DNA of 64,000 nt from Bdellovibrionales bacterium (GCA_050248995.1 JBFWRI010000008.1:3214-67213); one strand, 5' to 3'. Shown: positions 7,201-57,004, counted from the first letter of the stretch. Translations and numbers: made by a program. Notes: generated by a model from the sequence alone, not told the origin.

Positions 7201-7296
7201 ATAAGTCTCTTTCTGTTTTGCGCCCCCCGCCAAAAATGATTTCACGATACAAAGGCCGATTCAAGATTTTTTATTGCTGACCGCAAACGCGGTAGG

Positions 7297-8853
7297 CTAA
7301 GCGACGTTCGGTTCGTCGTCGCTGTTGCGGTTGGCCGGAACCTTATCAGGCCGCATGGTGAAGTACAGCAGCAGGCCGGTGGCCGTAAGGCCGGTAGCAG
7401 CTTCGATCACGCTATCTAGTGCGCCCAGCGGGTTGCGCGCCGCTTGTGAGGCCGCTTCCATCGCCGCGCCGGGATCGGTAACGGCCTGCACGGCTGTTTC
7501 GAAACCCTGCGCTGCCGCTTTACTGCTGGAGCTGATAATGGCGGTAACGGAATCGGGGCCCATAGCGGCCTTGGCTTGCAGTAGCTGGGCGGCATGGGCG
7601 CGGGCTTCGACCGGCAACAGAGCCACAGCGCCGATGGTGGCGGCGATTTTACCGAATGTTCCGGTGGCTGCGCGAACGCGTGCGTCGTGTGCAGCCTTGG
7701 CCCGGGCACGGGCTTCTGCATAGGTTGGTTCCCACACCTCGGGCGTATGGCAGTGAATTGTGAGATTTAGAAGGTCTGACTTGCCACCCGGCAGGCGGAA
7801 CAGACCAACACCTTTGGCCCTGAGGTTGTCAGGATGGTTTTCCTTGGCGAGAAAGTTTTCAAGGATATCTTCAAGCCCGATCGGATTGTCTTCGCCCGGG
7901 GGCTTCGTCAGATCGGGGCGCCGGCGGCGGCCCAGCTTCTCGGCAATGCACATGGCAATATCAAGCGAGTTTCCGCCCACCGTACCGACAATCGGTTCTG
8001 GCTGGATGTTATTGGGGCTGAAAGCGCGGCCGATAAGCGCGGCCGACAGGGCGCGGGTTTTCTCGACAGTATCAACGATGAAATCGGGCGTCAGGCCATC
8101 CAGCGTCTTGACCTTGGCAACCATGCGCACGGCCATGCGGGCGCCTTTACCCATCAAGCCGCGGGCCGCGGTTTTACCCAGCATCATATAGGTCAGTTCG
8201 CGCGCAACAACGCTGCTGGGGACGATATAGGGTATATTCGCTGCATTGATCTTTTCCATGGCCTGCCGGATTTCGGCCGCCACTTCCCGGCGCCGTTCCA
8301 TCGGCGCATGTTTCAGGCTGATGCTGCCAATATCCTCATAAATCTTATGGTCTTGCGATGCCAGAAAACGCGCACGCTGCGATTCTGGCGTGGTGCAGAA
8401 CATCTTGATGGTATGCTGTTTCAGGCCCTGCCCGACGGGAACCCATTGCATACTGCCATCTTCCTGCGGGATACATTCGGCCGGGTAGCCGTCAAGGTAG
8501 GCAAGAACCTTGCCGTTCTTTTTCAGGACGCCGCCCACATGGCCGTAACGTTCGACGGTGGGCCAGCCGATATGCAGGTGCGTGACGTTGAAGCTGATTT
8601 CATCAGCTTCCAAAAGCAGGGCTTCGGTTTGCGCTGGTGAATAACAATAAGTAGCGGGGATCTTTTCCACGGGATTGACCAGACCCGTTGTTTTCAGGCC
8701 TACAAATTCGCCGGTTTTCTCATCAATGATAAAATCCTGTTCTCCAACTTCGTAAGCATTGACAGGATCAAGGCGATGGGGGGTCATATCAATGTGCGCG
8801 CCACCGCCGGATGCGGAATGACCAGAACTATACGGTGGCAGCGGTTTACTCAT
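7297..8853 (-). CDS. hypothetical protein (518 aa), Ala-rich C-terminal third with one hydrophobic helix near the C-terminus
   Basis: Long uninterrupted ORF with protein-like composition. No P-loop or other catalytic motif recognised. Possible tail anchor GLTATGLLLYFTM. Confidence 0.6.
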   Translation of the reverse strand: MSKPLPPYSSGHSASGGGAHIDMTPHRLDPVNAYEVGEQDFIIDEKTGEFVGLKTTGLVNPVEKIPATYCYSPAQTEALLLEADEISFNVTHLHIGWPTVERYGHVGGVLKKNGKVLAYLDGYPAECIPQEDGSMQWVPVGQGLKQHTIKMFCTTPESQRARFLASQDHKIYEDIGSISLKHAPMERRREVAAEIRQAMEKINAANIPYIVPSSVVARELTYMMLGKTAARGLMGKGARMAVRMVAKVKTLDGLTPDFIVDTVEKTRALSAALIGRAFSPNNIQPEPIVGTVGGNSLDIAMCIAEKLGRRRRPDLTKPPGEDNPIGLEDILENFLAKENHPDNLRAKGVGLFRLPGGKSDLLNLTIHCHTPEVWEPTYAEARARAKAAHDARVRAATGTFGKIAATIGAVALLPVEARAHAAQLLQAKAAMGPDSVTAIISSSSKAAAQGFETAVQAVTDPGAAMEAASQAARNPLGALDSVIEAATGLTATGLLLYFTMRPDKVPANRNSDDEPNVA

Positions 8854-19720: not shown

Positions 19721-20515
19721 TTATCCCCCTCGTTTTTCCTGTAGCATCAGAAGGTCGTTCCACGCCTGGCGTTTTTGCGCCGGGTTGCGCAGCAGTGCGG
19801 CCGGGTGAAACATCGGCAACACCGGCACGGTTTTGCCTGTATTGGTCGTGAAGTCATACCATTTACCGCGCAGACGCGTAATGCCCTCGGTACGTTCCAG
19901 CAGCGTTTTGGTGGCAAGGCCGCCCAGCAGGACAATAATGCGCGGGTTAACCAGTTCGATATGTTTGTGCAGGAACGGCAGGCAGGCGGCGATCTCCATG
20001 TCGGTCGGCGTGCGGTTGCCGGGCGGGCGCCACGGCAGCACGTTGGTTATGTAATAGTCTTCGCGGCTGTTGATGCCGATGGCTGCCAGCATGCGGTCCA
20101 GCAACTGGCCGCTGCGGCCCACGAACGGCTGGCCCTGCCGGTCTTCGTCGGCGCCGGGCGCTTCGCCGATCAGCATAATGCCCGCTTGCGGGTTGCCTTC
20201 GCCGAACACAAGGTTTTTTGCGGTCTTCTTCAGCGCGCAGCCTTCAAACGCCGTCAGTTCTTTTTTCAGTTCTTCCAGACTCGCGGCAGCAACCTTCGAT
20301 GGCGGTGTTGAGGTAAACGTTGTCGGCGTTAGCGAGGTGACGATAGCGGCAGGTTTCGGCGGCGGTGACGGAAGCGGGCGGGCCGCAGCGGCAGCCGGGA
20401 CAGCTTTGGCGGGCGACGCTGAATAGTCGGCCCATTTCGCGGGAACCTCGCCGACGATATCGTCGGCGCCCATAACGGCAAGCCAGTCGAGTGCAGCAGC
20501 GGCGTTCAGTTCCAT
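19721..20515 (-). CDS. uracil-DNA glycosylase, family 4
   Basis: Motifs GEAPGADED and HPAALLRNP; Ala/Pro-rich N-terminal extension. Confidence 0.85.
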
Positions 20516-38690: not shown

Positions 38691-39539
38691 ATGAAAAAGC
38701 TTTTCCTTCTTGCAGCACTTCTTTTGTTGGCTGCCTGTGATCAGCAGGGCAGCAATGCATCATCGGCCCCGCAGGCTGATGAGGTTTACCACCGTGTGAT
38801 GAAATCAGGCGTTCTGCGCTGCGGGTATTCGGTATGGCCACCGTTATTCAAGGTTGATCCGAACACAGGCGAGAAGGGCGGCATCGTCGGCGATATGATG
38901 GTCGAGCTGGCGAAGCGCTATGGCCTGAAGATCGAATGGGTAGAAGAGCTGGGCTGGGGCACCGTTACCGAAGCGCTGGAGCAAAAGCGCGTGGACGCAG
39001 CCTGCGCGGGGTATTGGGCCAACACCAGCCGCAGCAAGTATGTATACTTCACCGTGCCGCTGTTCTATTCACCGACCTTCGTGTGGATGCGCGGCGACGA
39101 TACGCGCAACCCAGAAACTATCGACACGCTGGATGACCCGGCATGGACAGCGGGCCATGTGGATGGCTCGGCCGAAGGCAAGGCTATTGCCATACGCTTC
39201 CCCAAGGCCAAAACCTTCACCATTCCCGAGCTGATGCCCTCATCCGACCTGTTCGAGGCCCTGAAGGCCGGCAAGCTGGATTTCGTGGTGATGGACTATG
39301 CCAGTGTTGCCGACTTCCTGAACAAGAACCCGGGCGCGCTGAAAATGATGTTCCCCAATGACCCGGTCAGCATCCTGCCCGACGTGATGATGGTGCCGGG
39401 CGGCGAAAACCGCCTGAAGTCGCTGTTCGACAACGCCATCCGGGAAATGCAGTACGACGGCACGGTTGACCGTATTCTGGAAAAGAACGGCGCTGCCGGG
39501 ATGTACCCGAAGTCACTCAGCAAGTTCGATAAGGAATAA
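38691..39539 (+). CDS. family-3 solute-binding lipoprotein, orphan paralogue 2
   Basis: ATG 38691 preceded by AAGGAG; lipobox LLLAAC; VLRCGY ... GLKIEW ... VDAACAG pattern. Confidence 0.8.
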   Translation: MKKLFLLAALLLLAACDQQGSNASSAPQADEVYHRVMKSGVLRCGYSVWPPLFKVDPNTGEKGGIVGDMMVELAKRYGLKIEWVEELGWGTVTEALEQKRVDAACAGYWANTSRSKYVYFTVPLFYSPTFVWMRGDDTRNPETIDTLDDPAWTAGHVDGSAEGKAIAIRFPKAKTFTIPELMPSSDLFEALKAGKLDFVVMDYASVADFLNKNPGALKMMFPNDPVSILPDVMMVPGGENRLKSLFDNAIREMQYDGTVDRILEKNGAAGMYPKSLSKFDKE

Positions 39540-41981: not shown

Positions 41982-42845
41982 TTATCTTTGAAAACTGGGT
42001 GCGCGGCGCCAGAACGTATGCGGCGCCGGTTCGTACTTGGCGATGATCGCATCGATACGGCCATTGTTGTGCATCACTTCCAGCATCATGTTGACCATGC
42101 TGAGCAGGTTATGATCGCCCTTGCGGACTTCGAACACATTGGGGTTGATCTGTAACGGGTTGTCCGGCGTGATATTCTTGATGGTGCCAGGGTTGGCCAC
42201 GCTGTACTGGGCGCCGAAGTAGGCTTCGACAAAACCGATATCGGCCTTTTTCTCGGCGACACTCAGCAGGTTGGCGGCATAGGCGGCCATTTCCGGCAGC
42301 GAGTAGATTTTAGCATTCGGGAAGCGCTTGGCCGCGATAATGCTGGGCGCACTGCCGTCGGTGGCCGCAATCGTCACATCAGGGCTGTTGACGTTTGCCA
42401 GCGTACTGTCAAAACGGCTATCATCGGCGCGCACCCATGCGCTGACAGCTGAATAATAGACAGGAACGGTCGCCATCAGGCGAGTCATTTCCGGCACCTG
42501 AATGGCCCATGCGGCACCGCAGAACATATCGAACTTGCCGTCGGTCAAGTCTGAGATATAAGTGGCCCAGCCGCCGGCCTGTACCCACTCGATTTTCAGG
42601 CCCAGTTCTTTGCCTATTTCTTCGGCCACCTCGTACAGGATGCCCTTCATCTCATTGGTCTTGGCATCGCGGAAGTTGGCGGGCTCGTAATCGACAAAGC
42701 CACAGCGAAGCGTCTTGGTTTCCAGCACGCGGGCCAGCGTATCCTGCGCTGTGGCAGAGGCCTTTTCACCGCGCTGGCCGACATACCATGCGGTGCCGGC
42801 GCTGATCACAATGATAAGGACAAGTGAAAGAAGACGTTTAAACAT
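41982..42845 (-). CDS. family-3 solute-binding protein, orphan paralogue 3
   Basis: TLRCGF ... GLKIEWVQ ... FDMFCG pattern; N-terminal anchor. Confidence 0.8.
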   Translation of the reverse strand: MFKRLLSLVLIIVISAGTAWYVGQRGEKASATAQDTLARVLETKTLRCGFVDYEPANFRDAKTNEMKGILYEVAEEIGKELGLKIEWVQAGGWATYISDLTDGKFDMFCGAAWAIQVPEMTRLMATVPVYYSAVSAWVRADDSRFDSTLANVNSPDVTIAATDGSAPSIIAAKRFPNAKIYSLPEMAAYAANLLSVAEKKADIGFVEAYFGAQYSVANPGTIKNITPDNPLQINPNVFEVRKGDHNLLSMVNMMLEVMHNNGRIDAIIAKYEPAPHTFWRRAPSFQR

Positions 42846-45184: not shown

Positions 45185-45640
45185 ATGGCAAATAATCCAT
45201 ACGGCGCATACCAGAAACAGCAGGAGCAGCAGGAAGACATACGTTTGTCGGAAGCGCGGGCCTTGTTGCGCATGGCGGCATTGATGGAAGAAATGCAGAA
45301 ACCCGGTGCCTCGTACCTTGATTACAGCGATGCAGTACGCCAGAACCAGCAGCTTTGGACCCTGTTCCAGGCAGCGATGATGGAAGAAGACAACAAACTG
45401 CCGCACGCGCTGAAGCAGACCCTGAAGGGGCTTAGCATTTATGTCGACCGCCGCAGTCTTAAGGCGATCGGTAATCACGAACCGCGATTGTTAAGCGTGT
45501 TGATTAACATCAACAAGGAAATCGCGGCCGGGCTGATGGAAAGCGTGAAGAACGATGTCTCTGCGGCCGGCGCGGTGCTGAATGCGCCGCCCCAGTCACC
45601 GTCACCGCAAAGCGGCGGCAGCATCAGCGGCCAGTTTTAA
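45185..45640 (+). CDS. flaF: flagellar biosynthesis regulator FlaF
   Basis: EARALLRMA ... AVRQNQQLWTLF ... NKLP-ALKQTLKGLSIYV pattern; follows flbT directly. Confidence 0.75.
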   Translation: MANNPYGAYQKQQEQQEDIRLSEARALLRMAALMEEMQKPGASYLDYSDAVRQNQQLWTLFQAAMMEEDNKLPHALKQTLKGLSIYVDRRSLKAIGNHEPRLLSVLININKEIAAGLMESVKNDVSAAGAVLNAPPQSPSPQSGGSISGQF

Positions 45641-47804
45641 TCCACGACTCGTAAGCGTCGGCATAGAAGGTGTTCAGGCGCTCACCCACGCCTGGATCGG
45701 CGTGTAATGCCGGTAGGGCAGCCTGAAGTTTTGCGCGAAGCGCTGTGCGTTGCGCGGGGTCATTACCCAGTTTAACTGCAATATCAATATAATCCTGCAC
45801 GGTGCTGCCGATCAGTTCGGGAACGCCCATCAGCTGCAGGCAGCCGGACGTGTGACGGCCGCGCATAAAACGCCCGGCCTGCGTCACAACGAGCCCGCCC
45901 AGCTCCAGCGCCTCAAACGTGGTGTTGGCGCCCGACCAGCCCAAACTATCCAGTGTGATATCGGCCAACATGTGCAGTGCGCGATAGCCGTCCTGTTCCT
46001 GAAAAGGCAGGAAGATAAGGTGTTTGTCGGGGTCGAGCCCGTGATCGCGGAACGGCTGTTCCATGCGGTGGCGGAACACGTCGGCAACGGCGGCATTTTC
46101 GGCGTGGTTGATGAACACGAATTTGCTGTTCGGTACTTTTTCGGCAATCGCCGCATGCACATTATCGAACTCGGGCAGGTATTTCTGCACTGACTGCAGA
46201 CACAAATAAAAGACATCTGTATCGGTCAGGCCAAAGTCGGCGCGAGCCATGTCCTGATAGATGCGGTCGGAGACATTGAAGATAGGTTGCGGAACAACCG
46301 ACAGGCCGGGCAGGCTGACCAGTGTTTCGGTATAATGCGCGGCAGCGCCTTCGGGCTCCATCAGTTCACTCGAAAGGTAATAATCCATCGTCGGCAGGCC
46401 GCTGGTGACCGGGTGGCCCCATGTCGTGCACTGAACGGGAGCCAGACGCAGGGCGGCCAACTTTATGGTGAGCGGTTTCAGGCCGACGTTCGTATACTGG
46501 ATGATATCGGGTTGGTCGGCACGCAGGCGCGCCAGAACACCGTTGAAATCGTCGGGGTAATGGTGCAGTTCGTCCACCATGTCGGCAATTTGCTTTGTGT
46601 AGGCGTCAATGCGCGTGCCGACGTGATAGCAGGTGATGTGGTACCGGCTGCGGTCGAGCCGTTTCAGCCAGCTGCGGCGCAGCTTCATATTGGAGTGGTA
46701 GAAAAACGTTTCTGACACGAAGGCAAGGCGGGTTTTGCCATCCGTATTGCGGGCGTCGCGTTCGGGAACCGTCAGCAGGCGGTGTGCGCCGAAGCGGCGT
46801 GCCAGAACATCGCTGAACAACTCGCCGGTCACGCGCTGGGCTTCGGTGATATTCTCGCCGGTATAGGCCAGGAACAATGGGTAAGCCATGTTGAACAGAT
46901 CTTCCACACCCTGTAGAGCGCCGTCGGGCAGGGTTTTGACGAAGGCATGCAGGTCGCGCACGGCCTGCGTATAGCGCGTCATGTGTTCTTTTATCTGCGC
47001 CGTGCTTTCGTAAATCGGCAGCACCAGTGCGAACGTGCGGAACCAACGCGCATCCAGCTGCGCCGGGTCAAGCTGCTGCGCCTTGGCGAAGTAGCCTTCG
47101 GCTTCCATATTACGTGAATGGGCCAGCGCGATGCGGCCAAGCGCAGTCCACGCGGCGGGGTCGTCTGGCGCAATAGTAGTATGGCGCACGGCCCAGTCCC
47201 ACTGACGTTGGGGCTGCAGCAGGTGTTTATCAACAGCAGCGATCAGCGCGAATGCCTGGCGGCGCGCATCCGCATCGGCTTGCGCCAGGGCCAACTCCAG
47301 CGCCTTCTCGGCATTGGTGCGCGCTTCTTCGAACAGGCCGGCGCGCTCTTCCGCCTGCGCCAGCTCCAGCCATGCGGCGGGCAGTTGCGGCGCCAGCGTG
47401 ACAAGGTTTTCAAACGTGGCCAGTGCGGCGTTATTCTCGCCGCCTTCGGTGTAGGCGCGGCCGAGCGCCAGCCAGAAATCAACCCGCGTAGGCGCGCGCT
47501 TGGCGGCTTCCATGAAAGCGGCAGCCGCTTCCTTGTACTGGCGGTGATCGAAGAAGATCATGCCCATGTTGAACCATGCGGGCGGGTTGTTGGCATCGAG
47601 CACAAGCGCCTGCCGGATCATGTTCAGGCCTTCTTCACTGCGGCCCTGCGTGTGGCGCAGGCTGCCCAGCAGGTTCAGCGCATCGATATCTTTGGGATTG
47701 TCGGCTAAAATTGTTTCATACAGCAGCACAGCACGGCCGATATCGCCCTGCTGGTGGGCTTCCATGGCTTGCTGAAGGGCGGTAGCGGACATTATTGTTC
47801 CCAC
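45624..47804 (-). CDS. TPR-repeat glycosyltransferase (SPINDLY/O-GlcNAc-transferase-like C-terminal domain; FlmG-like architecture)
   Basis: N-terminal ~300 aa of TPR repeats plus a ~400-aa C-terminal GT-like domain. Alternative ATG 47792 shares 1 nt with the upstream SBP stop (TAATG). Confidence 0.7.
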   Translation of the reverse strand: MGTIMSATALQQAMEAHQQGDIGRAVLLYETILADNPKDIDALNLLGSLRHTQGRSEEGLNMIRQALVLDANNPPAWFNMGMIFFDHRQYKEAAAAFMEAAKRAPTRVDFWLALGRAYTEGGENNAALATFENLVTLAPQLPAAWLELAQAEERAGLFEEARTNAEKALELALAQADADARRQAFALIAAVDKHLLQPQRQWDWAVRHTTIAPDDPAAWTALGRIALAHSRNMEAEGYFAKAQQLDPAQLDARWFRTFALVLPIYESTAQIKEHMTRYTQAVRDLHAFVKTLPDGALQGVEDLFNMAYPLFLAYTGENITEAQRVTGELFSDVLARRFGAHRLLTVPERDARNTDGKTRLAFVSETFFYHSNMKLRRSWLKRLDRSRYHITCYHVGTRIDAYTKQIADMVDELHHYPDDFNGVLARLRADQPDIIQYTNVGLKPLTIKLAALRLAPVQCTTWGHPVTSGLPTMDYYLSSELMEPEGAAAHYTETLVSLPGLSVVPQPIFNVSDRIYQDMARADFGLTDTDVFYLCLQSVQKYLPEFDNVHAAIAEKVPNSKFVFINHAENAAVADVFRHRMEQPFRDHGLDPDKHLIFLPFQEQDGYRALHMLADITLDSLGWSGANTTFEALELGGLVVTQAGRFMRGRHTSGCLQLMGVPELIGSTVQDYIDIAVKLGNDPAQRTALRAKLQAALPALHADPGVGERLNTFYADAYESWIKTGR

Positions 47805-48643
47805 TCCGGCGCGTCGCGGCGCACGGCCAGTTTGCGCTCAGGGTCATATTTATCCAGGATCTTATCCATAATCCCGACATCAAACAGTATTTCCATGCCC
47901 TGATTCAGCATTTGCAACAGGGCGTGCTGGTTTTTGCCAACGCTCATGCCCGTTGGGATAAAGCCGTAGGGCCTTGCAAACAGTGGCTTGATGGCGCCTG
48001 GATACTGAGCTTCGGTCATGCTGACAGTAACGGGATCAACTAGAACGACATCAGCCTTGTTATCAATAACATTTAGCACCAGCAGGCTAGGGTCAGCCAT
48101 ATTCGGTAGACTTAGCATCTTGGCTTGCGGGAAACTCTCTACAGCATAGACTGTACTGAGATCGCCATCGAGCGCCGAGAATGTGACATCCGGGCTGTTC
48201 AGGTCGGCCGGGATTTTGAACCGAGTTTCATTCGCGCGGCCATAAACATCAATACGGAACTTGGCAAACGGCGTGACGAAATCTTCATATGCTGCACTTT
48301 TCCAGTTAAATGGGCCGTTGGCGGCACAGATGGCGTCTACTTTGGTTGTCTGCAAGGCTTCAACTTCGCTCCCAATAGCAACTTCAGTCCATTCAACCTT
48401 CAGGCCGAATTTTTGTGCAACACTTTCAGCAACATCAAATGCGATGCCTGACAGCGCGCCGGTATTCGGGTCTTTATCTACAAACTTGGGCCATAAGAAA
48501 TAGCCGCAGCGCAGCGTGCCAGTGCGCATCACGCGGTCATACGCGCTTTCGTGGCTGATGCCGGGCGTATAGGTGCGCACGGCCACTGTGGCACCGAAGA
48601 AACCGGCAGCAAGACACAAAAGGACAAGAAGCGCTTTCTTCAT
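47792..48643 (-). CDS. family-3 solute-binding protein, orphan paralogue 4
   Basis: TLRCGY ... GLKVEWTE ... VDAICA pattern. Confidence 0.8.
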   Translation of the reverse strand: MKKALLVLLCLAAGFFGATVAVRTYTPGISHESAYDRVMRTGTLRCGYFLWPKFVDKDPNTGALSGIAFDVAESVAQKFGLKVEWTEVAIGSEVEALQTTKVDAICAANGPFNWKSAAYEDFVTPFAKFRIDVYGRANETRFKIPADLNSPDVTFSALDGDLSTVYAVESFPQAKMLSLPNMADPSLLVLNVIDNKADVVLVDPVTVSMTEAQYPGAIKPLFARPYGFIPTGMSVGKNQHALLQMLNQGMEILFDVGIMDKILDKYDPERKLAVRRDAPEWEQ

Positions 48644-48651
48644 ATGTACCT

Positions 48652-49506
48652 CTAGTTGGCCATAAGGTGCGGGCGCACGAAGATGGGCGGGCTTTCATCG
48701 TATTTGTCGATAATCGCATCCAGCTGGCCGTTGTAGATCATTTCCTGCGTTGCCAGATCAAGCACGCGTTTCAGCTTTGTTTCGCCATGCTTGATAGGGA
48801 TAGCGAAGGGCGAGACCACAAACGGTTCTAGCGTGCGCACATGGCGGACTTGCCCGGGATTTAGTTTATCATAGCGCTTGCCGACAAAGTGAGTTGCGAT
48901 GACAACATCGGCCTTACCCGTGGCGACATATAGCAATGGGTCGGTATCCGGTGACAACTGTACAAGCTCTGTCAGCGTGGCTTTGGGAAAGTGCTGGCGG
49001 GCGATCTTGCCGAAGATATCGCCTTCGATGGCAACGATTTTCACAGAAGGATCGTTTATTTTTTCGATATTACCATCAAAACGGTTGTCATCCTGTCGCA
49101 CATAAAGCCAGAAGATGTTGCCGATATAGGGCATTGTATAATCAGCGGCTTTGGCGCGTTCGGCGCTGATCGACATCGCCGTGCAATAGGCGTCGATGCG
49201 GTCGGCCTGCAGGGCAGGGCCAAAGTCGCCGCGGCCCAGTTCTTCCGTCCATTCCACCTTCAGGCCAAGGTTCTTCGCCAGCTGTTCCATATAGTCATAA
49301 ACGATGCCGTGCAGCTGATTACGGTTGACATCAATTTCCAGAAAGACAGTGGATGACAGATAACCGCAGCGGATTGTGCCTGTACGCATGACGCGGTCGT
49401 ATACCGACTCGATGGCGGCGGTTTCTTTCGCCGCTTCTTTATTGAACAGCCACGCCCCAGCGAAGCCAGCCGCTAGTGCGAGTAGGACAAGAAGGAAGGT
49501 ACGCAT
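48652..49506 (-). CDS. family-3 solute-binding protein, orphan paralogue 5
   Basis: TIRCGY ... GLKVEWTE ... IDAYCT pattern; starts 18 nt after the gyrB stop. Confidence 0.8.
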   Translation of the reverse strand: MRTFLLVLLALAAGFAGAWLFNKEAAKETAAIESVYDRVMRTGTIRCGYLSSTVFLEIDVNRNQLHGIVYDYMEQLAKNLGLKVEWTEELGRGDFGPALQADRIDAYCTAMSISAERAKAADYTMPYIGNIFWLYVRQDDNRFDGNIEKINDPSVKIVAIEGDIFGKIARQHFPKATLTELVQLSPDTDPLLYVATGKADVVIATHFVGKRYDKLNPGQVRHVRTLEPFVVSPFAIPIKHGETKLKRVLDLATQEMIYNGQLDAIIDKYDESPPIFVRPHLMAN

Positions 49507-49524
49507 GAGGACTCCGGATGGAGA

Positions 49525-51966
<2,442 letters not shown>

Positions 51967-52005
51967 TCAAAAAGTGATGAATTCATGACCTGAAAATTAC
52001 CCTTT

Positions 52006-53145
52006 TCAGGCCGCTGACGCCACCACTTTTTTCGCACTACCCACACCAATCTGGTAGGTCACCAGAGGCCCCGGAAACCCTTTAAAAAGGCCTGTTTCCA
52101 CGCCGGTCATCCACACCTGTGCACCCAGTGCGTGAAGGCTTGTGAATAATGCCTGACGGCGGGCGGAATCAAGGTGGCTGGCGACCTCGTCCAGCAGCAA
52201 AATCGGGGCGGCTCCGCGGGCCTCGGCAACCAGGCTGGCGTGGGTCAGAAGCAGCGTGATCATCAGTGCTTTTTGCTCGCCGGTTGAACACATTTCAGCC
52301 GGTGTGTTTTTCGCGGTGTAGAATGCCTGAATATCGGTGCGGTGTGCGCCGGCTTCCACCGTTTGGTATTGCGCATCGCGCCCGCGTGTGCGCACGAACG
52401 TGGCCCGCAGGTTGTCTTCCACCGTCAGTGCCGGGTTATCGCGCAGCTGGATTTCGATGCCGTGTTTGATGCGCAGGTCAACGCAGGGGAACTGCCCGGC
52501 CACGCCCGGGGCTTTCTCGTTCAGCGCCTGCATCAGGTGCATACGGGCAGCGGCGATGGCCACGGCCGTGGCGGCCAGTTCGTCTTCCAGCGTTTCCATC
52601 CAGGTATGGTCATAGCCGCCGGGCTGGGTCAGCAGGGCGACCCGCTCGCGCAGCTGCTTTTCATAGCGTGTCAGGCGGCCGGTATGGGCGGGGTCGAAGG
52701 CGGCCACAAGGCGGTCGAAGAACCGGCGCTTGTCGCCCGGGCCTTCGGCCAGCATGCGGTCCATTTCCGGGGTCAGCCACGACAAGGCGATGTAATCGGC
52801 AAAGTCCGATATGCTGGCTGGGTTGTTATTCAGCTGTGCTGTGCGTTTTTCGTTGTCGGCCGATGTCTCGCGCCCAGTGGCCAGCTGCTGGGTACCTTCG
52901 GGGCCCTCAACGGCGGCGACGATACCCCAGGGCTGCTCGGCCGCCGCTGTCATCTGTTTAACTTCAGACAATTCAGCGCGGCGCAGGCCACGGCCTGGGA
53001 TCAGTAGGCTGATCGCTTCAAGGATGTTGGTTTTACCCGTGCCGTTCGGCCCCGCCAGCGCCACCGACGCCGGACCGGGCGTAAGTTCCAGCCACGCATA
53101 ACTGCGGAAATGGGTCAGGGCAAGGCGCGTAACGCGGTAGGGCAT
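52006..53145 (-). CDS. recF: DNA replication/repair protein RecF
   Basis: LALTHFRSY ... GPNGTGKTNILEAI Walker A; C-terminal LLLDEV. Confidence 0.93.
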   Translation of the reverse strand: MPYRVTRLALTHFRSYAWLELTPGPASVALAGPNGTGKTNILEAISLLIPGRGLRRAELSEVKQMTAAAEQPWGIVAAVEGPEGTQQLATGRETSADNEKRTAQLNNNPASISDFADYIALSWLTPEMDRMLAEGPGDKRRFFDRLVAAFDPAHTGRLTRYEKQLRERVALLTQPGGYDHTWMETLEDELAATAVAIAAARMHLMQALNEKAPGVAGQFPCVDLRIKHGIEIQLRDNPALTVEDNLRATFVRTRGRDAQYQTVEAGAHRTDIQAFYTAKNTPAEMCSTGEQKALMITLLLTHASLVAEARGAAPILLLDEVASHLDSARRQALFTSLHALGAQVWMTGVETGLFKGFPGPLVTYQIGVGSAKKVVASAA

Positions 53146-53169
53146 AAGCTGACTGTAGGGGAAAGCGGC

Positions 53170-54018
53170 CTAACGCACCAGCAGGTTGCGGCCCCATGTA
53201 TTGGGGTAGGTTTCGTTGGCCTGCATAACCTTTTCCATCTTACCCGACAGGATGACCTCGCGTGTGGCGGCGCCAATCAGGTTAGCCAGTTCATGTTCAG
53301 TATTTGCAACCGCAACGCCGAACGGGAAACTACGCACGGGCTGACGGGCAACAACTTCACGGATCTTGCCGGGGCTGTTCTTCATGAAGGGGCCGGCCTG
53401 CGCGGGATCTGACAGGATGGCGTCAGCTTTGTTTTGCGCGATGCCGACAAACAGTTCACTGTGCTCGACCAACTGCGGCACGCTGACCAGCGTTGCATTC
53501 GGGAATTCGGCCTTAGTGACGAACTGGCTGCTTTCACCGTCAACGACATTGAAACGCACAGAGGCATCATTCATGGCTGCGATGTTATTATCAAAGCGCA
53601 CATCATCCGCCCGCACATAGGCGCGCATCTGCACATAGCCCACGGGTTCGGCGACAATCGAACCCCATGCACGCTTGGCGTTTTCACCAAACGCTCCGCA
53701 GATGGCATCAACGCGACCTGTACGCAGAGCTTCCAGTGAGTCACCAAGACCGATTTCGGCTGACCATTCGATTTTCAGACCGGCGGCGTCAGCAATGGCC
53801 ATAGATGCATCATGCATCAGGCCTTTCATCTGGCCGCTGGTCTGGTCTTTTTCAAAATACCCCGCGCGGTACATATAGCCGCAACGCAGAACGCGGTCAC
53901 GCGACACACGTTCAAAGGCCGTTTCTTTCGCGGCGACATCAGCGGTTTTGGCCGGAGCGAGATAGCTGCCGGCAAAACCGGCAGCCAAGGCTAGCAGGAT
54001 GAGGAGAAATCCCCTCAT
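53170..54018 (-). CDS. family-3 solute-binding protein, orphan paralogue 6 (between dnaN and recF)
   Basis: VLRCGY ... GLKIEWSAE ... VDAICG pattern. Its ATG shares 1 nt with the dnaN stop (TGATG). recF starts 24 nt after its stop. Confidence 0.8.
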   Translation of the reverse strand: MRGFLLILLALAAGFAGSYLAPAKTADVAAKETAFERVSRDRVLRCGYMYRAGYFEKDQTSGQMKGLMHDASMAIADAAGLKIEWSAEIGLGDSLEALRTGRVDAICGAFGENAKRAWGSIVAEPVGYVQMRAYVRADDVRFDNNIAAMNDASVRFNVVDGESSQFVTKAEFPNATLVSVPQLVEHSELFVGIAQNKADAILSDPAQAGPFMKNSPGKIREVVARQPVRSFPFGVAVANTEHELANLIGAATREVILSGKMEKVMQANETYPNTWGRNLLVR

Positions 54019-55136
54019 CAGACACGCATCGGCATCAGCACGTACAGCGCCGACTGGTCGCTGGTGTCTTCGATCAGCGCCGGGGCGCCGGCGTCTGCCA
54101 GCACGATGCGGGTGGTTTCACCGCTGATCTGCTGGGCAACATCCAGCAGGTACTTGGCGTTGAAGCCGATTTCGATCTTGCTGTCGTTGTAATCGACATC
54201 CAGTTCGTCGGTGGCGCTACCTGCTTCCGGCGATTGAGCTGTCAGGACCAGTTGGCCCTTGCTGACCGTCAGCTTCACGGCGCGCGACTTTTCGGTGCTG
54301 ATGGTGGCAACGCGGTCGACAGCCGAAGCGAACTGGCGGGTCGAGCAGGTGGCAACCTTGTCATTGCCGGTCGGGATGACGCGTTCGTAATCCGGGTATG
54401 TGCCGTCGATCAGCTTCGATGTCAGCGTTACCATGCCGCTGGTGGCGCGGATCTTGGTGGCCGACAGTTCGACGACGATGCTGTCATCGGTTTCGTCCAG
54501 CAGCTTGCGCAGTTCCTGTACGGTCTTGCGCGGGATGATGACGGAAGGCATTTCGGCAGTGCCCTTCGGTGCTTCGCATTCAGCGCGGGCCAGGCGGTGG
54601 CCGTCGGTGGCGACAGCGCGCAGCACATCGCGGCCGTTCGACTTGGTGACATGCAGGTAGATACCGTTCAGGTAGTAACGTGTTTCTTCGGTGCTGATCG
54701 CGAACTTGGTGCGGTCGATCATGCTGCGCAGGGCGGTCGCCGGAATCTGGAAGCGCACAGCCAGCGCGTCTTCGCGCATCTGTGGGAAATCTTCAACAGG
54801 CAGCGTGCCGAGCTTGAAGTTCGACTTGCCGGCCTTCAGCGTGACCTGCGTGCTGTTGTCGCCGCGTTCGATATCAACCTTGGCGTCATCCGGCAGTTTG
54901 CGCACGATGTCATACAGCATGTGGGCGCTGACGGTGATCTCGCCCGGCTTGCCGACAGTGGCGGCTATGGTTTCGTTCATCTCGACATCCATGTCGGTTG
55001 CAGTCACAGTCACCGTGCTGCCCTGCGCGCGGATCAGGATGTTCGACAGAATGGGAATGGTGTTGCGGCGTTCAACAACGCTTTGCACGTGACCGAGGGT
55101 TTTAAGAAGCGCGGCGCGCTCGAGAGAAATTTTCAT
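54018..55136 (-). CDS. dnaN: DNA polymerase III beta sliding clamp
   Basis: MKISLERAALLKTLGHVQSVVERRNTIPILSN ... LMPMRV. ATG 55136 gives the canonical 372 aa; the ORF extends to 55190. Confidence 0.93.
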   Translation of the reverse strand: MKISLERAALLKTLGHVQSVVERRNTIPILSNILIRAQGSTVTVTATDMDVEMNETIAATVGKPGEITVSAHMLYDIVRKLPDDAKVDIERGDNSTQVTLKAGKSNFKLGTLPVEDFPQMREDALAVRFQIPATALRSMIDRTKFAISTEETRYYLNGIYLHVTKSNGRDVLRAVATDGHRLARAECEAPKGTAEMPSVIIPRKTVQELRKLLDETDDSIVVELSATKIRATSGMVTLTSKLIDGTYPDYERVIPTGNDKVATCSTRQFASAVDRVATISTEKSRAVKLTVSKGQLVLTAQSPEAGSATDELDVDYNDSKIEIGFNAKYLLDVAQQISGETTRIVLADAGAPALIEDTSDQSALYVLMPMRV

Positions 55137-55237
55137 GGGAGAGCCTGACGAAGTGGCGGGTGGCGTCTGTTTCAGGGCAGCTTGGGTCATGCCTTTTTGA
55201 TAGCAAAACGGCTGATGCCCGGCAAGAGGAAAGGCCC

Positions 55238-55558: not shown

Positions 55559-57004
55559 CTAGTTCTTCAGCGTGCGTTCCAGCACCGTCACATCATCGGC
55601 CAGTGTCTGGTCTTCGCGGCACAGTTTATCAATGGTGCGCACGGCGTGCAGAACGGTCGTGTGATCACGGCCACCAAACTTGCGGCCGATTTCCGGCAGG
55701 CTGCGGGTGGTCAGCGTTTTGGCCAGATACATGGCCACTTGGCGCGGACGGGCCACAGCGCGCGCCCGGCGCGGCGAGGTCATGTCGGTCAGCTTGATGT
55801 TGAAGTGTTCGGCCACGCGGCGCTGGATGTCATCGATGGTGACACGGCGGTCATAGGCGCGCAGCAGGTCAGCCAGCTGTTCCTGTGCGGTTTCCAGCGT
55901 TACCGGACGGCCAACCAGATCGGCCTGGGCCACAAGGCGGTTTAAGGCGCCTTCCAGTTCACGCACGTTGTTGGTGATTTTCTGGGCCAGGAACTGCAGC
56001 ACTTCGCCCGGAACCTTTACGCCGGCCTTCAGGTTTTCCAGCTTCGTCTGCAGGATGCCAAGGCGCAGTTCGTAGGTTGTGGGGTGGATATCGGCGCACA
56101 GGCCCCAGCCGAGGCGCGAGCGCAGGCGGTCTTGCAGGCCTTCAAGGTCGGTCGGCGACTTGTCGGCCGACAGGATGATCTGCTTGTTCTGCTCGATCAG
56201 CACGTTGAACGTCTGGAAGAATTCTTCCTGCGTATTGTCCTTGCCGCAGATGAACTGCACGTCATCGATCATCAGTACGTCGACGTTGCGGAACTGCTCC
56301 TTGAAAGAAACCGTATCGCGTGAACGCAGGGCGCGGATGAACTGGTACATGAATTTTTCGGCCGACAGGTACATGACCTTGCGCTCAGGTGTCTTTTCCT
56401 TGATGGCCCAGGCGATGGCGTGCATCAGGTGGGTCTTGCCAAGGCCGACGCCGCCATACAGGAACAGCGGGTTCAGGTTTGGCTGGAAGCCTTCGGCGAC
56501 GCGCAGGGCGGCGGCATAGGCCAGCTCGTTCGGCTTGCCGACCACAAAGTTCTCAAAGCGGAAGCGGGGGTCCAGCGGGGCCGACAGGGCCACCGGGGCC
56601 GTTTCAGCGGTGAAAGCGGGCTGCACGTCGTCAATGCCGGTGACAACCGGGGCGCCGATTGCGGCGCCGGCGATGTTGCCCAGCATGTTTTCGACAGCGA
56701 AGTTGACGCTGACGGCGTGCCCGGCTTCCTGGCTGACGAGATCGAAAATCTTGTCGCGGTAATGGGTTTCAACCCAGTCGCGCTGGAACTTGCTGGGCAA
56801 GGTCAGTGTGATATCGGTATCCGACAGTTCGGCAAATGACAGCGACGACAGCCAGCGCTTATAGGTCGTGGCACCCAGGTCCGCTTCAAGGCGTGAGGCG
56901 ACGCGGCCCCAGAGATTTTCACCATTGTCGCTGGTATTGTCGAAGCCTTTTACGGCCAGGTTGTTTACACCCATATGGTTGCCCCCAAATGTAAAGCCCA
57001 ACAT
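55559..57004 (-). CDS. dnaA: chromosomal replication initiator DnaA
   Basis: AAA+ Walker A GGVGLGKTHLMHA; sensor and DNA-binding domain GGRDHTTVLHA; 481 aa. Confidence 0.97.
   Translation of the reverse strand: MLGFTFGGNHMGVNNLAVKGFDNTSDNGENLWGRVASRLEADLGATTYKRWLSSLSFAELSDTDITLTLPSKFQRDWVETHYRDKIFDLVSQEAGHAVSVNFAVENMLGNIAGAAIGAPVVTGIDDVQPAFTAETAPVALSAPLDPRFRFENFVVGKPNELAYAAALRVAEGFQPNLNPLFLYGGVGLGKTHLMHAIAWAIKEKTPERKVMYLSAEKFMYQFIRALRSRDTVSFKEQFRNVDVLMIDDVQFICGKDNTQEEFFQTFNVLIEQNKQIILSADKSPTDLEGLQDRLRSRLGWGLCADIHPTTYELRLGILQTKLENLKAGVKVPGEVLQFLAQKITNNVRELEGALNRLVAQADLVGRPVTLETAQEQLADLLRAYDRRVTIDDIQRRVAEHFNIKLTDMTSPRRARAVARPRQVAMYLAKTLTTRSLPEIGRKFGGRDHTTVLHAVRTIDKLCREDQTLADDVTVLERTLKN

Follow-up and report, generated by a model that had tools for sequence, protein, structure and literature searches.

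Why should genes for exported solute-binding proteins (SBPs) lie inside the highly conserved dnaN-recF-gyrB block of a bacterial chromosome? The question is raised by a stretch of 64,000 nucleotides, here called the window, which covers C8:3214-67213 (JBFWRI010000008.1; window coordinate = C8 coordinate − 3213) of the source genome G000. G000 is the metagenome-assembled genome of an uncultured alphaproteobacterium (1.77 Mb, 48 contigs, 98% complete). Between 45.6 and 57.0 kb, the minus strand carries dnaA, dnaN, SBP6, recF, gyrB, SBP5, SBP4, and a TPR/GT41 gene in this order. The most probable answer, to which we assign a rough probability of 0.7, is that these genes form part of a large repertoire of alternative receptors, all of which would serve a single ATP-binding cassette (ABC) importer in a compact genome.

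All six family-3 SBP open reading frames (ORFs) that a sequence-only reading of the window had pointed out are present, and all match PF00497 above its cut-off of 26.4 bits. Five are of the exported type and lie on the minus strand: SBP6 (53170..54018, 282 amino acids, E 2.6e-10, signal MRGFLLILLALAAGFAGS) in the dnaN/recF interval, SBP5 (48652..49506, 284 amino acids, E 3.3e-20) and SBP4 (47792..48643, 283 amino acids, E 3.4e-13) downstream of gyrB, SBP3 (41982..42845, 287 amino acids, E 3.9e-20), and SBP1 (18874..19716, 280 amino acids, match C8:22135-22800, E 1.3e-19) between the genes for a uracil-DNA glycosylase (UDG) and rnhB. SBP2 (38691..39539, plus strand, 282 amino acids, E 2.6e-19) is a lipoprotein-type SBP with the lipobox LLLAAC. 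In the whole genome, PF00497 and a family-specific hidden Markov model each give 26 matches, and the six window ORFs and the 26 genome matches score between 35 and 82 bits. The end of one contig (C20:33272-33620) and the start of another (C22:1-731) share 210 nt, with 3 mismatches, within a single SBP gene; because these halves are one split gene, the 26 matches correspond to 25 genes. Joined, the two contigs read lolC-lolD-SBP, followed by queA on the opposite strand, and the break resembles a strain-variant bubble within the SBP gene. The genome-wide count that had been suggested as a check thus amounts to 25 paralogues on 14 contigs, about 1.3-1.5% of the genes of G000, and none of the copies contains an internal stop.

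The membrane partner of the family lies outside the window. As the sequence-only reading had stated, no permease is found in the 64 kb, and BPD_transp_1 is absent from the whole of contig C8; the sole ABC_tran signal in the window (24.6 bits) falls inside a 1179-amino-acid frame. G000 has four BPD_transp_1 permeases, only one of which is of the GlnP/HisM/ArtQ type. This cognate permease (C2:58044-58706, 220 amino acids) is adjoined by an ArtP/GlnQ-like ATPase (C2:58706-59440), and the pair is surrounded by four SBP paralogues (C2:54457-61147), while 21 of the 25 copies are unlinked to the permease operon. We compared 18 other genomes carrying the SBP subfamily with 14 same-class controls, and a permease orthologue was present in 17 of the former and in none of the latter. 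Its identity is 80% in G001 and 59-75% in the other genomes, and there is one copy per genome whether the SBP count is 1 or 25. In most genomes the permease adjoins at least one SBP gene, and core SBP-permease-ATPase operons occur in G001, G033, G155, and G179. Mainly because the permease stays single-copy regardless of the number of SBPs, we infer that many SBPs dock on one translocator. That cognate transporters elsewhere might account for the copies, as the sequence-only reading had allowed, is thus true in part only: the family has one conserved single-copy partner, the PAAT-type permease with its ATPase on C2. Most likely, the 25 exported class-II SBPs would act as alternative substrate receptors for this single importer. 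Their differing ligand-contact positions would widen the uptake range to amino acids, related carboxylates or amines at the cost of one membrane machine.

The relationship of the family to solved proteins was assessed with an alignment and a profile of 23 full-length paralogues of the 25, which are also the basis of the residue counts below. The best match of the profile in the PDB is AncCDT-1 (5t0w, E 1.5e-49), followed by other reconstructed ancestors, extant cyclohexadienyl dehydratases (CDT), and then ordinary amino-acid SBPs; in overall profile similarity, the cyclohexadienyl dehydratase 5hpq (E 3.3e-27) is a weaker match than AncCDT-1. AncCDT-1 is a reconstructed cationic-amino-acid binder, and its clade includes SAR11 Pu1068, which binds a ligand other than an amino acid, and the enzyme CDT (10.1101/157495). 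The AncCDT-1/Ws0279/Pu1068/CDT clade (5T0W, 5KKW, 5HPQ) provides the best profile matches (E 1e-49 to 1e-27) and shares the two-lobed fold. An AlphaFold2 model of SBP6 (pLDDT 90.4, pTM 0.81) likewise has the two-lobed class-II SBP fold. Foldseek aligned the model (E 1e-19) with 9e2b, 5eyf, and 5t0w at target-normalised TM values of 0.79-0.83, the ligands in these structures being Trp, Glu, and Arg, respectively, although the identity of SBP6 to the solved structures is only about 14-21%.

The motifs LRCGY, GLKxEW, and DxxC, proposed as common to the six window proteins, recur in the 23-sequence alignment. R45, C46, W85, and C107 are each found in at least 90% of the sequences, and D104 is invariant. 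AncCDT-1 differs from the window family here: where aligned, it has neither the cysteine pair (LRCGY ... DxxC) nor GLKxEW. In the SBP6 model, the conserved cysteines sit on two beta-strands (residues 43-48 and 105-111), and they may be joined by a disulfide. Two sister paralogues (C10:8053-8907 and C1:105608-106492) with the Tat-like start MEKR(D/E)FLKT have lost the first cysteine, which fits the predicted disulfide and folding before export. By eye, all copies have an N-terminus that begins K/R-rich and contains a hydrophobic segment of about 17 residues, either a cleaved signal or an anchor; two of the G000 copies have a lipobox and two the Tat-like KR(D/E)FLK. At E ≤ 1e-30, the subfamily numbers 1,247 representatives among 1.84 billion cluster representatives, and the sole database name, where any is given, is "polar amino acid transport system substrate-binding protein". 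A word-based protein search with SBP6 returned only SBP6 itself and one 34% match. Judged by these sequence features, the six ORFs are members of a Cys-pair subfamily that stands apart within Pfam family 3 (the polar-amino-acid type) and is so far uncharacterised. It is a good target for ligand screens, which could reveal the diet of uncultured bacteria of landfill and sludge.

Not every copy is equally equipped to bind an amino acid. The equivalents of LAO Arg77 and Asp161, which we take to be the alpha-carboxylate and the alpha-ammonium site, respectively, were located by way of the motif alignment to AncCDT-1. Both residues are kept in 11 of the 23 paralogues, 7 have only the Arg/Lys, 4 only the acidic residue, and 1 has neither. 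SBP6 keeps Arg and Asp, SBP5 keeps the Arg but has Thr at the Asp161 equivalent, and SBP4 has Ser and Asp. Most copies hence resemble the AncCDT-1 clade in their alpha-carboxylate Arg, and some have lost the amino-acid dyad, as has Pu1068. The variation at ligand-contact positions fits divergent specificities. It can also be read to mean that most orphan copies are not receptors at all but CDT-like periplasmic enzymes, ligand buffers, or sensors acting through a kinase or the single chemoreceptor. The 12 of 23 copies in which the Arg or the Asp is missing are in line with such roles, as are CDT and the non-amino-acid binder Pu1068 in the closest solved clade, the one chemoreceptor (MCP) gene of G000, and the window SBPs that have no adjacent membrane partner. 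However, no SBP carries a fused signaling domain, a single MCP would have to serve 25 SBPs, and the tight co-occurrence with a dedicated permease and ATPase, including the core operons in four genomes, argues for receptors. We therefore consider it unlikely that most of the orphan copies have a function other than that of a receptor.

If the proteins are receptors, their position next to replication and repair genes still has to be explained. The genes around SBP6 all lie on the minus strand: dnaN (54018..55190), the DNA polymerase III beta clamp, with three beta-clamp Pfam domains (E 1e-35 to 1e-43); dnaA (55559..57004), which has tblastn orthologues upstream of dnaN in relatives; recF (52006..53145; SMC_N/RecF E 1.9e-21, 58% identity to G001 recF); gyrB (49525..51954), with DNA_gyraseB, Toprim, HATPase_c, and C-terminal domains; and a gene for a TPR protein with a GT41-type glycosyltransferase (45624..47804; Glyco_transf_41 E 4.9e-27, TPR repeats). 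The start/stop overlaps and gaps described in the sequence-only reading are all present letter for letter. The dnaN stop and the SBP6 start share one base (gtcTGATGagg), and the SBP6 stop TAG is followed after 24 nt by the ATG of recF. Between the TAA of gyrB and the ATG of SBP5 lie 18 nt containing GGAG, 8 nt separate the TAG of SBP5 from the ATG of SBP4, and the SBP4 stop overlaps the start of the TPR-glycosyltransferase (caaTAATGtcc). Farther away, the family-4-type UDG gene (19721..20515, minus strand, PF03167 E 4.7e-42) is followed by a 4-nt gap and SBP1, which overlaps rnhB (RNase HII, 18257..18874, minus strand, NF000595 E 2e-73) with −1 nt (gacTGATGccc).

An assembly or binning artefact might be suspected in a genome of 48 contigs in which one SBP gene is split across two contig ends. 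The G000 organism is contained in metagenomes from landfill, sludge, and soil. In two landfill samples, single contigs span recF-SBP6-dnaN (52723-54168) and TPR-GT-SBP4-SBP5-gyrB (47323-49702) with zero differences. A third study, of a sludge strain (bioreactor runs X3/X4), gave the same gene order as the window in this related strain. The junctions are thus not assembly artefacts, because independent contigs cross them without a difference, and the probability of an artefact is negligible.

The sequence-only reading had considered that the exported proteins are expressed, by design, in step with replication or cell-cycle transcription, which placement and translational coupling would achieve. 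The one-base overlap with dnaN and the short gaps to recF and gyrB invite this view, and 5 of the 25 copies do touch genes of DNA metabolism (dnaN/recF, gyrB with two copies, UDG/rnhB, and uvrC). One copy follows the gene of the cell-cycle regulator TrcR. The other 20 copies, however, adjoin ribosomal, secretion, cell-wall, tRNA-modification, folate, and lipoprotein-sorting genes, and most copies are packed co-directionally against housekeeping genes. One copy is flanked by uvrC (overlap −1) and pgsA (overlap −4) and another by folA (overlap −4) and sixA (overlap −1). Copies also lie next to miaA (overlap −4), cvpA (overlap −4), ddl (3 nt), era (9 nt), lolC-lolD (9 nt), and rpoD (19 nt). Two copies follow rplO, secY adjoins one as well, and further neighbors are an OmpA-like gene, TrcR, and a Nudix gene. 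Because the neighbors are housekeeping genes of all classes, there is no specific link to replication or repair.

Tight junctions are the norm in this genome. Of 1041 same-strand pairs of non-SBP genes, 30% overlap, with a median gap of 23 nt; for the 32 same-strand pairs containing an SBP, the values are 37.5% and 8.5 nt (Mann-Whitney p = 0.13). A start/stop overlap is an ordinary feature of G000, and the SBP pairs are not significantly tighter.

The arrangement was further compared in about 75 alphaproteobacterial dnaN loci and in 16 genomes of the SBP family in which dnaN was found. The suggestion that dnaN-SBP-recF might be conserved in relatives fails in this set of, in all, about 100 alphaproteobacterial loci, since the order is absent from G001, from the approximately 75 loci, and from all 16 genomes. 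The order to which G000 belongs has two genomes in the database; the other member is G001 (OZ251993.1), whose DnaN is 74% identical. In most of the approximately 75 loci, recF directly follows dnaN. In several genomes, the junction contains unrelated inserts. In G001 the interval holds a terminator and a reverse-strand ORF of 156 amino acids (L013:7185-7655), in G155 a 316-amino-acid protein with a signal-like N-terminus (L236:535-1494), in G377 a 329-amino-acid ORF (L239:2664-3707), in G048 a DUF6228 gene (L231:2621-3109), and in G225 a short ORF. The dnaN-recF junction thus tolerates insertions in this part of the tree and, given these several small-genome alphaproteobacteria, looks like an insertion hot spot.

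Two loci come close to the arrangement of the window. In L017, from another metagenome-assembled alphaproteobacterial genome (CBDFFU010000003.1), an SBP of the subfamily (7232-8062) lies just after dnaN on the opposite strand, and there is no recF within 6 kb. In G179, which belongs to a different family of the class, gyrB is followed after 3 nt by an SBP of the subfamily (L206/L213, G179:C30, 135-3464). The recurrence of gyrB-SBP, together with the SBP6 allele that is kept in place in the related strain, might be taken in favor of replication coupling, but the G179 copy is no orthologue of either SBP4 or SBP5. For the same reason, and also because 15 other family-bearing genomes do not have it, we rejected an ancestral linkage of gyrB with an SBP. 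The L017 and G179 cases are probably coincidences. In G001, a TPR+GT41 (O-GlcNAc-transferase-like) gene directly follows gyrB after 25 nt (L013:11359-13128); in this order, the gene is a conserved part of the dnaN-recF-gyrB block, at its downstream side.

With dnaN-SBP-recF unconserved in the sister genus and about 90 other genomes, unrelated genes at the same junction in other lineages, neighbors of every class, and overlaps as a genome norm, a tie of SBP expression to replication or the cell cycle is very unlikely. As the comparisons show, the dnaN/recF, gyrB, and UDG/rnhB positions have no replication-specific meaning. The other proposal, repeated capture into constitutive operons, fits broadly, as 25 scattered copies are packed against housekeeping genes, although this capture is not specific to replication genes. 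For annotation, the case calls for caution: a gene joined closely to dnaN or gyrB in a compact genome is not necessarily linked to it in function.

How old is the repertoire, and do its members move? The paralogues are 23-35% identical to SBP6 and the end branches of the tree measure about 1 substitution per site; hence, the duplications are old. A phylogeny of the paralogues, which had been proposed as a check, bears out their strong divergence, but the copies of G000 are not monophyletic. In maximum-likelihood trees they are intermixed with the copies of G001, G022, G033, G155, G179, and L017 to the degree given by shuffled labels, and at least 8 orthologous groups across genomes are supported. 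SBP4 groups with G001_b and G022_b, and the G001 orthologue adjoins the permease. SBP5 groups with two G155 copies, SBP3 with one G155 copy (support 98), and SBP1 with G179 and G155 copies, the G179 orthologue being at an unrelated site. SBP2 is the sister of the uvrC-pgsA copy, which is likewise a lipoprotein. The era copy groups with one G179 copy, the secY copy with G001_a, the rpoD copy with G155 and G179 copies, and the ompA copy with G155 copies. Members of each orthologous group occupy unrelated sites in different genomes. Because the groups cross genomes at unrelated loci, the repertoire is old and its members move; the SBP family thus relocates over evolutionary time.

Large sets of the family are also found in G155 (21 copies), G299 (19), and G179 (11), in genomes of 1.3-1.9 Mb. 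G001 has two intact SBPs beside the permease and a third copy (C1:1346186-1346914) broken by a TAG stop, which suggests that its lineage is losing the SBP family. At every comparable G000 insertion site, the flanks are syntenic in G001 without an SBP; the gaps there measure 25 nt between gyrB and TPR-GT, 20 nt between lolD and queA, and 104 nt between ddl and its neighbor. The corresponding intergenic gaps of G001 were searched for SBP remnants, with nothing but noise as the outcome (E > 0.2).

Sites that are empty in G001 and differ in every lineage could also be produced by a mobile, cassette-like or horizontally acquired element whose recent insertions are neutral passengers. The allele replacements of SBP4 and SBP6 in the related strain, bounded by the gene ends (described below), would suit such an element. 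However, the surroundings of the 26 matches showed neither flanking repeats nor attC-like hairpins nor a non-coding motif in common, and many SBP junctions measure −4 to +10 nt, leaving no room for a recombination site. The GC content at third codon positions (GC3) of the SBPs is native (0.646 versus 0.657 in other genes, p = 0.24). Horizontal transfer was rejected on this ground, and the lower overall GC content (0.550 versus 0.572) reflects amino-acid composition. The age of the duplications also speaks against recent passengers. Finally, all 24 listed nucleotide differences of SBP5 in the sludge strain are synonymous, and SBP5 is apparently under strong purifying selection. Neutral insertions of a mobile element are, accordingly, an extremely improbable source of the copies.

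The genes would still have to be expressed at their new sites. None of the RNA runs searched for the window stretch carries it, and the number of consensus promoters and terminators in a scan did not exceed that in shuffled sequence, with none on the coding strand at the junctions. A GGAG-like ribosome-binding site precedes most SBP starts, even inside the upstream gene. The copy at C2:54457 is bracketed by strong hairpin terminators and is probably transcribed alone. For the others, the default expectation would be co-transcription with the flanking genes, with translation independent or coupled. The coding share of G000 is 93% by a crude ORF call. With so much coding sequence and few free-standing promoters, an SBP copy would persist where it is read through from a constitutive neighbor and translated from its own ribosome-binding site.

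Several points weigh against a receptor set that shares one importer and persists by read-through. The case for a shared translocator consists of gene counts and co-occurrence. About half of the paralogues do not have the canonical dyad and the nearest solved clade includes the enzyme CDT, so some copies may be non-receptors. Co-transcription is an expectation on which the consensus scan is uninformative. Gain in G000 and loss in G001 are ambiguous for each single site, and the shared orthologous groups imply many losses in G001. The gyrB-SBP pair of G179 may be due to chance or to a weak preference for this position, and the model would leave the latter unexplained.

Shared translocators of this type are known. 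In Salmonella and E. coli, HisJ and LAO (ArgT), which belong to the family SBP_bac_3, share the HisQMP2 translocator. In Pseudomonas aeruginosa, DppA1-5 share one Dpp permease (PMC12728205). As in G000, these are diverged SBP paralogues with different ligand profiles and one ABC translocator, and some of the SBP genes are unlinked. They number 2 to 5 SBPs per translocator, whereas G000 would have 25 in 1.77 Mb, and they have their own regulated promoters, whereas most G000 SBPs are wedged into unrelated housekeeping operons. Orphan SBPs have also expanded in the TctC/"Bug" group within the family of tripartite tricarboxylate transporters (TTT), in Bordetella (PMC11452294) and with 434 copies in Rhodoplanes (PMC5994714). 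These expansions share with G000 the lineage-specific excess of scattered orphan SBPs over very few membrane components. They differ in the SBP fold family, in the secondary TTT in place of an ABC transporter, and in their large genomes, compared with the streamlined 1.3-2.0-Mb genomes here. According to the trees, the G000 repertoire is old and common to several lineages and does not stem from a recent burst.

Operons are said to grow by insertion of new genes (the account of Price, Arkin and Alm, 2006, "The life-cycle of operons"), and as in the window, new or relocated genes are expressed by joining existing units, often with short spacers. Unlike in general operon growth, a single family accounts for about 15-20 events in one genome, and the highly conserved dnaN-recF-gyrB block is included. 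The type of system is thus already known from HisJ/LAO, DppA1-5, and Bug/TctC. Distinctive here are the ratio of 25:1 in 1.77 Mb, the Cys-pair subfamily, and the islands of divergence between strains; G000 would represent an extreme extent of the design of many receptors for one ABC translocator.

These islands became visible in the sludge strain. Its recF, dnaN, gyrB, and glycosyltransferase are 97-100% identical to the window, and dnaN-SBP6-recF is common to both at the strain or species level. The interior of SBP4 (47794-48497) is replaced in X3 by 708 unlike letters, on one contig with both flanks matching. In the SBP6 region (53194-53665+), the match covers recF, the spacer, and the stop with the seven codons before it, after which 18 of 30 bases agree; the C-terminus of the sludge allele is still orthologous (RANEEFPDTY versus QANETYPNTW). 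Two of the three SBP genes in the block are thus islands of divergence, and SBP5 between them differs by synonymous changes only. The sharp edges of both islands suggest allele replacement by recombination, a lead that draws on 30 letters of one allele. A tentative and, on balance, doubtful extension of the receptor array with one translocator in this deep-branching alphaproteobacterial group with small genomes would be that promoter-less SBPs sit in essential operons and that the conserved flanks anchor the homologous recombination by which whole SBP alleles are swapped from strain to strain. If true, this would explain the islands at SBP4 and SBP6, and populations could re-tune their nutrient spectrum quickly with regulation untouched. 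The islands suggest that SBP loci are perhaps among the fastest-changing parts of such genomes.

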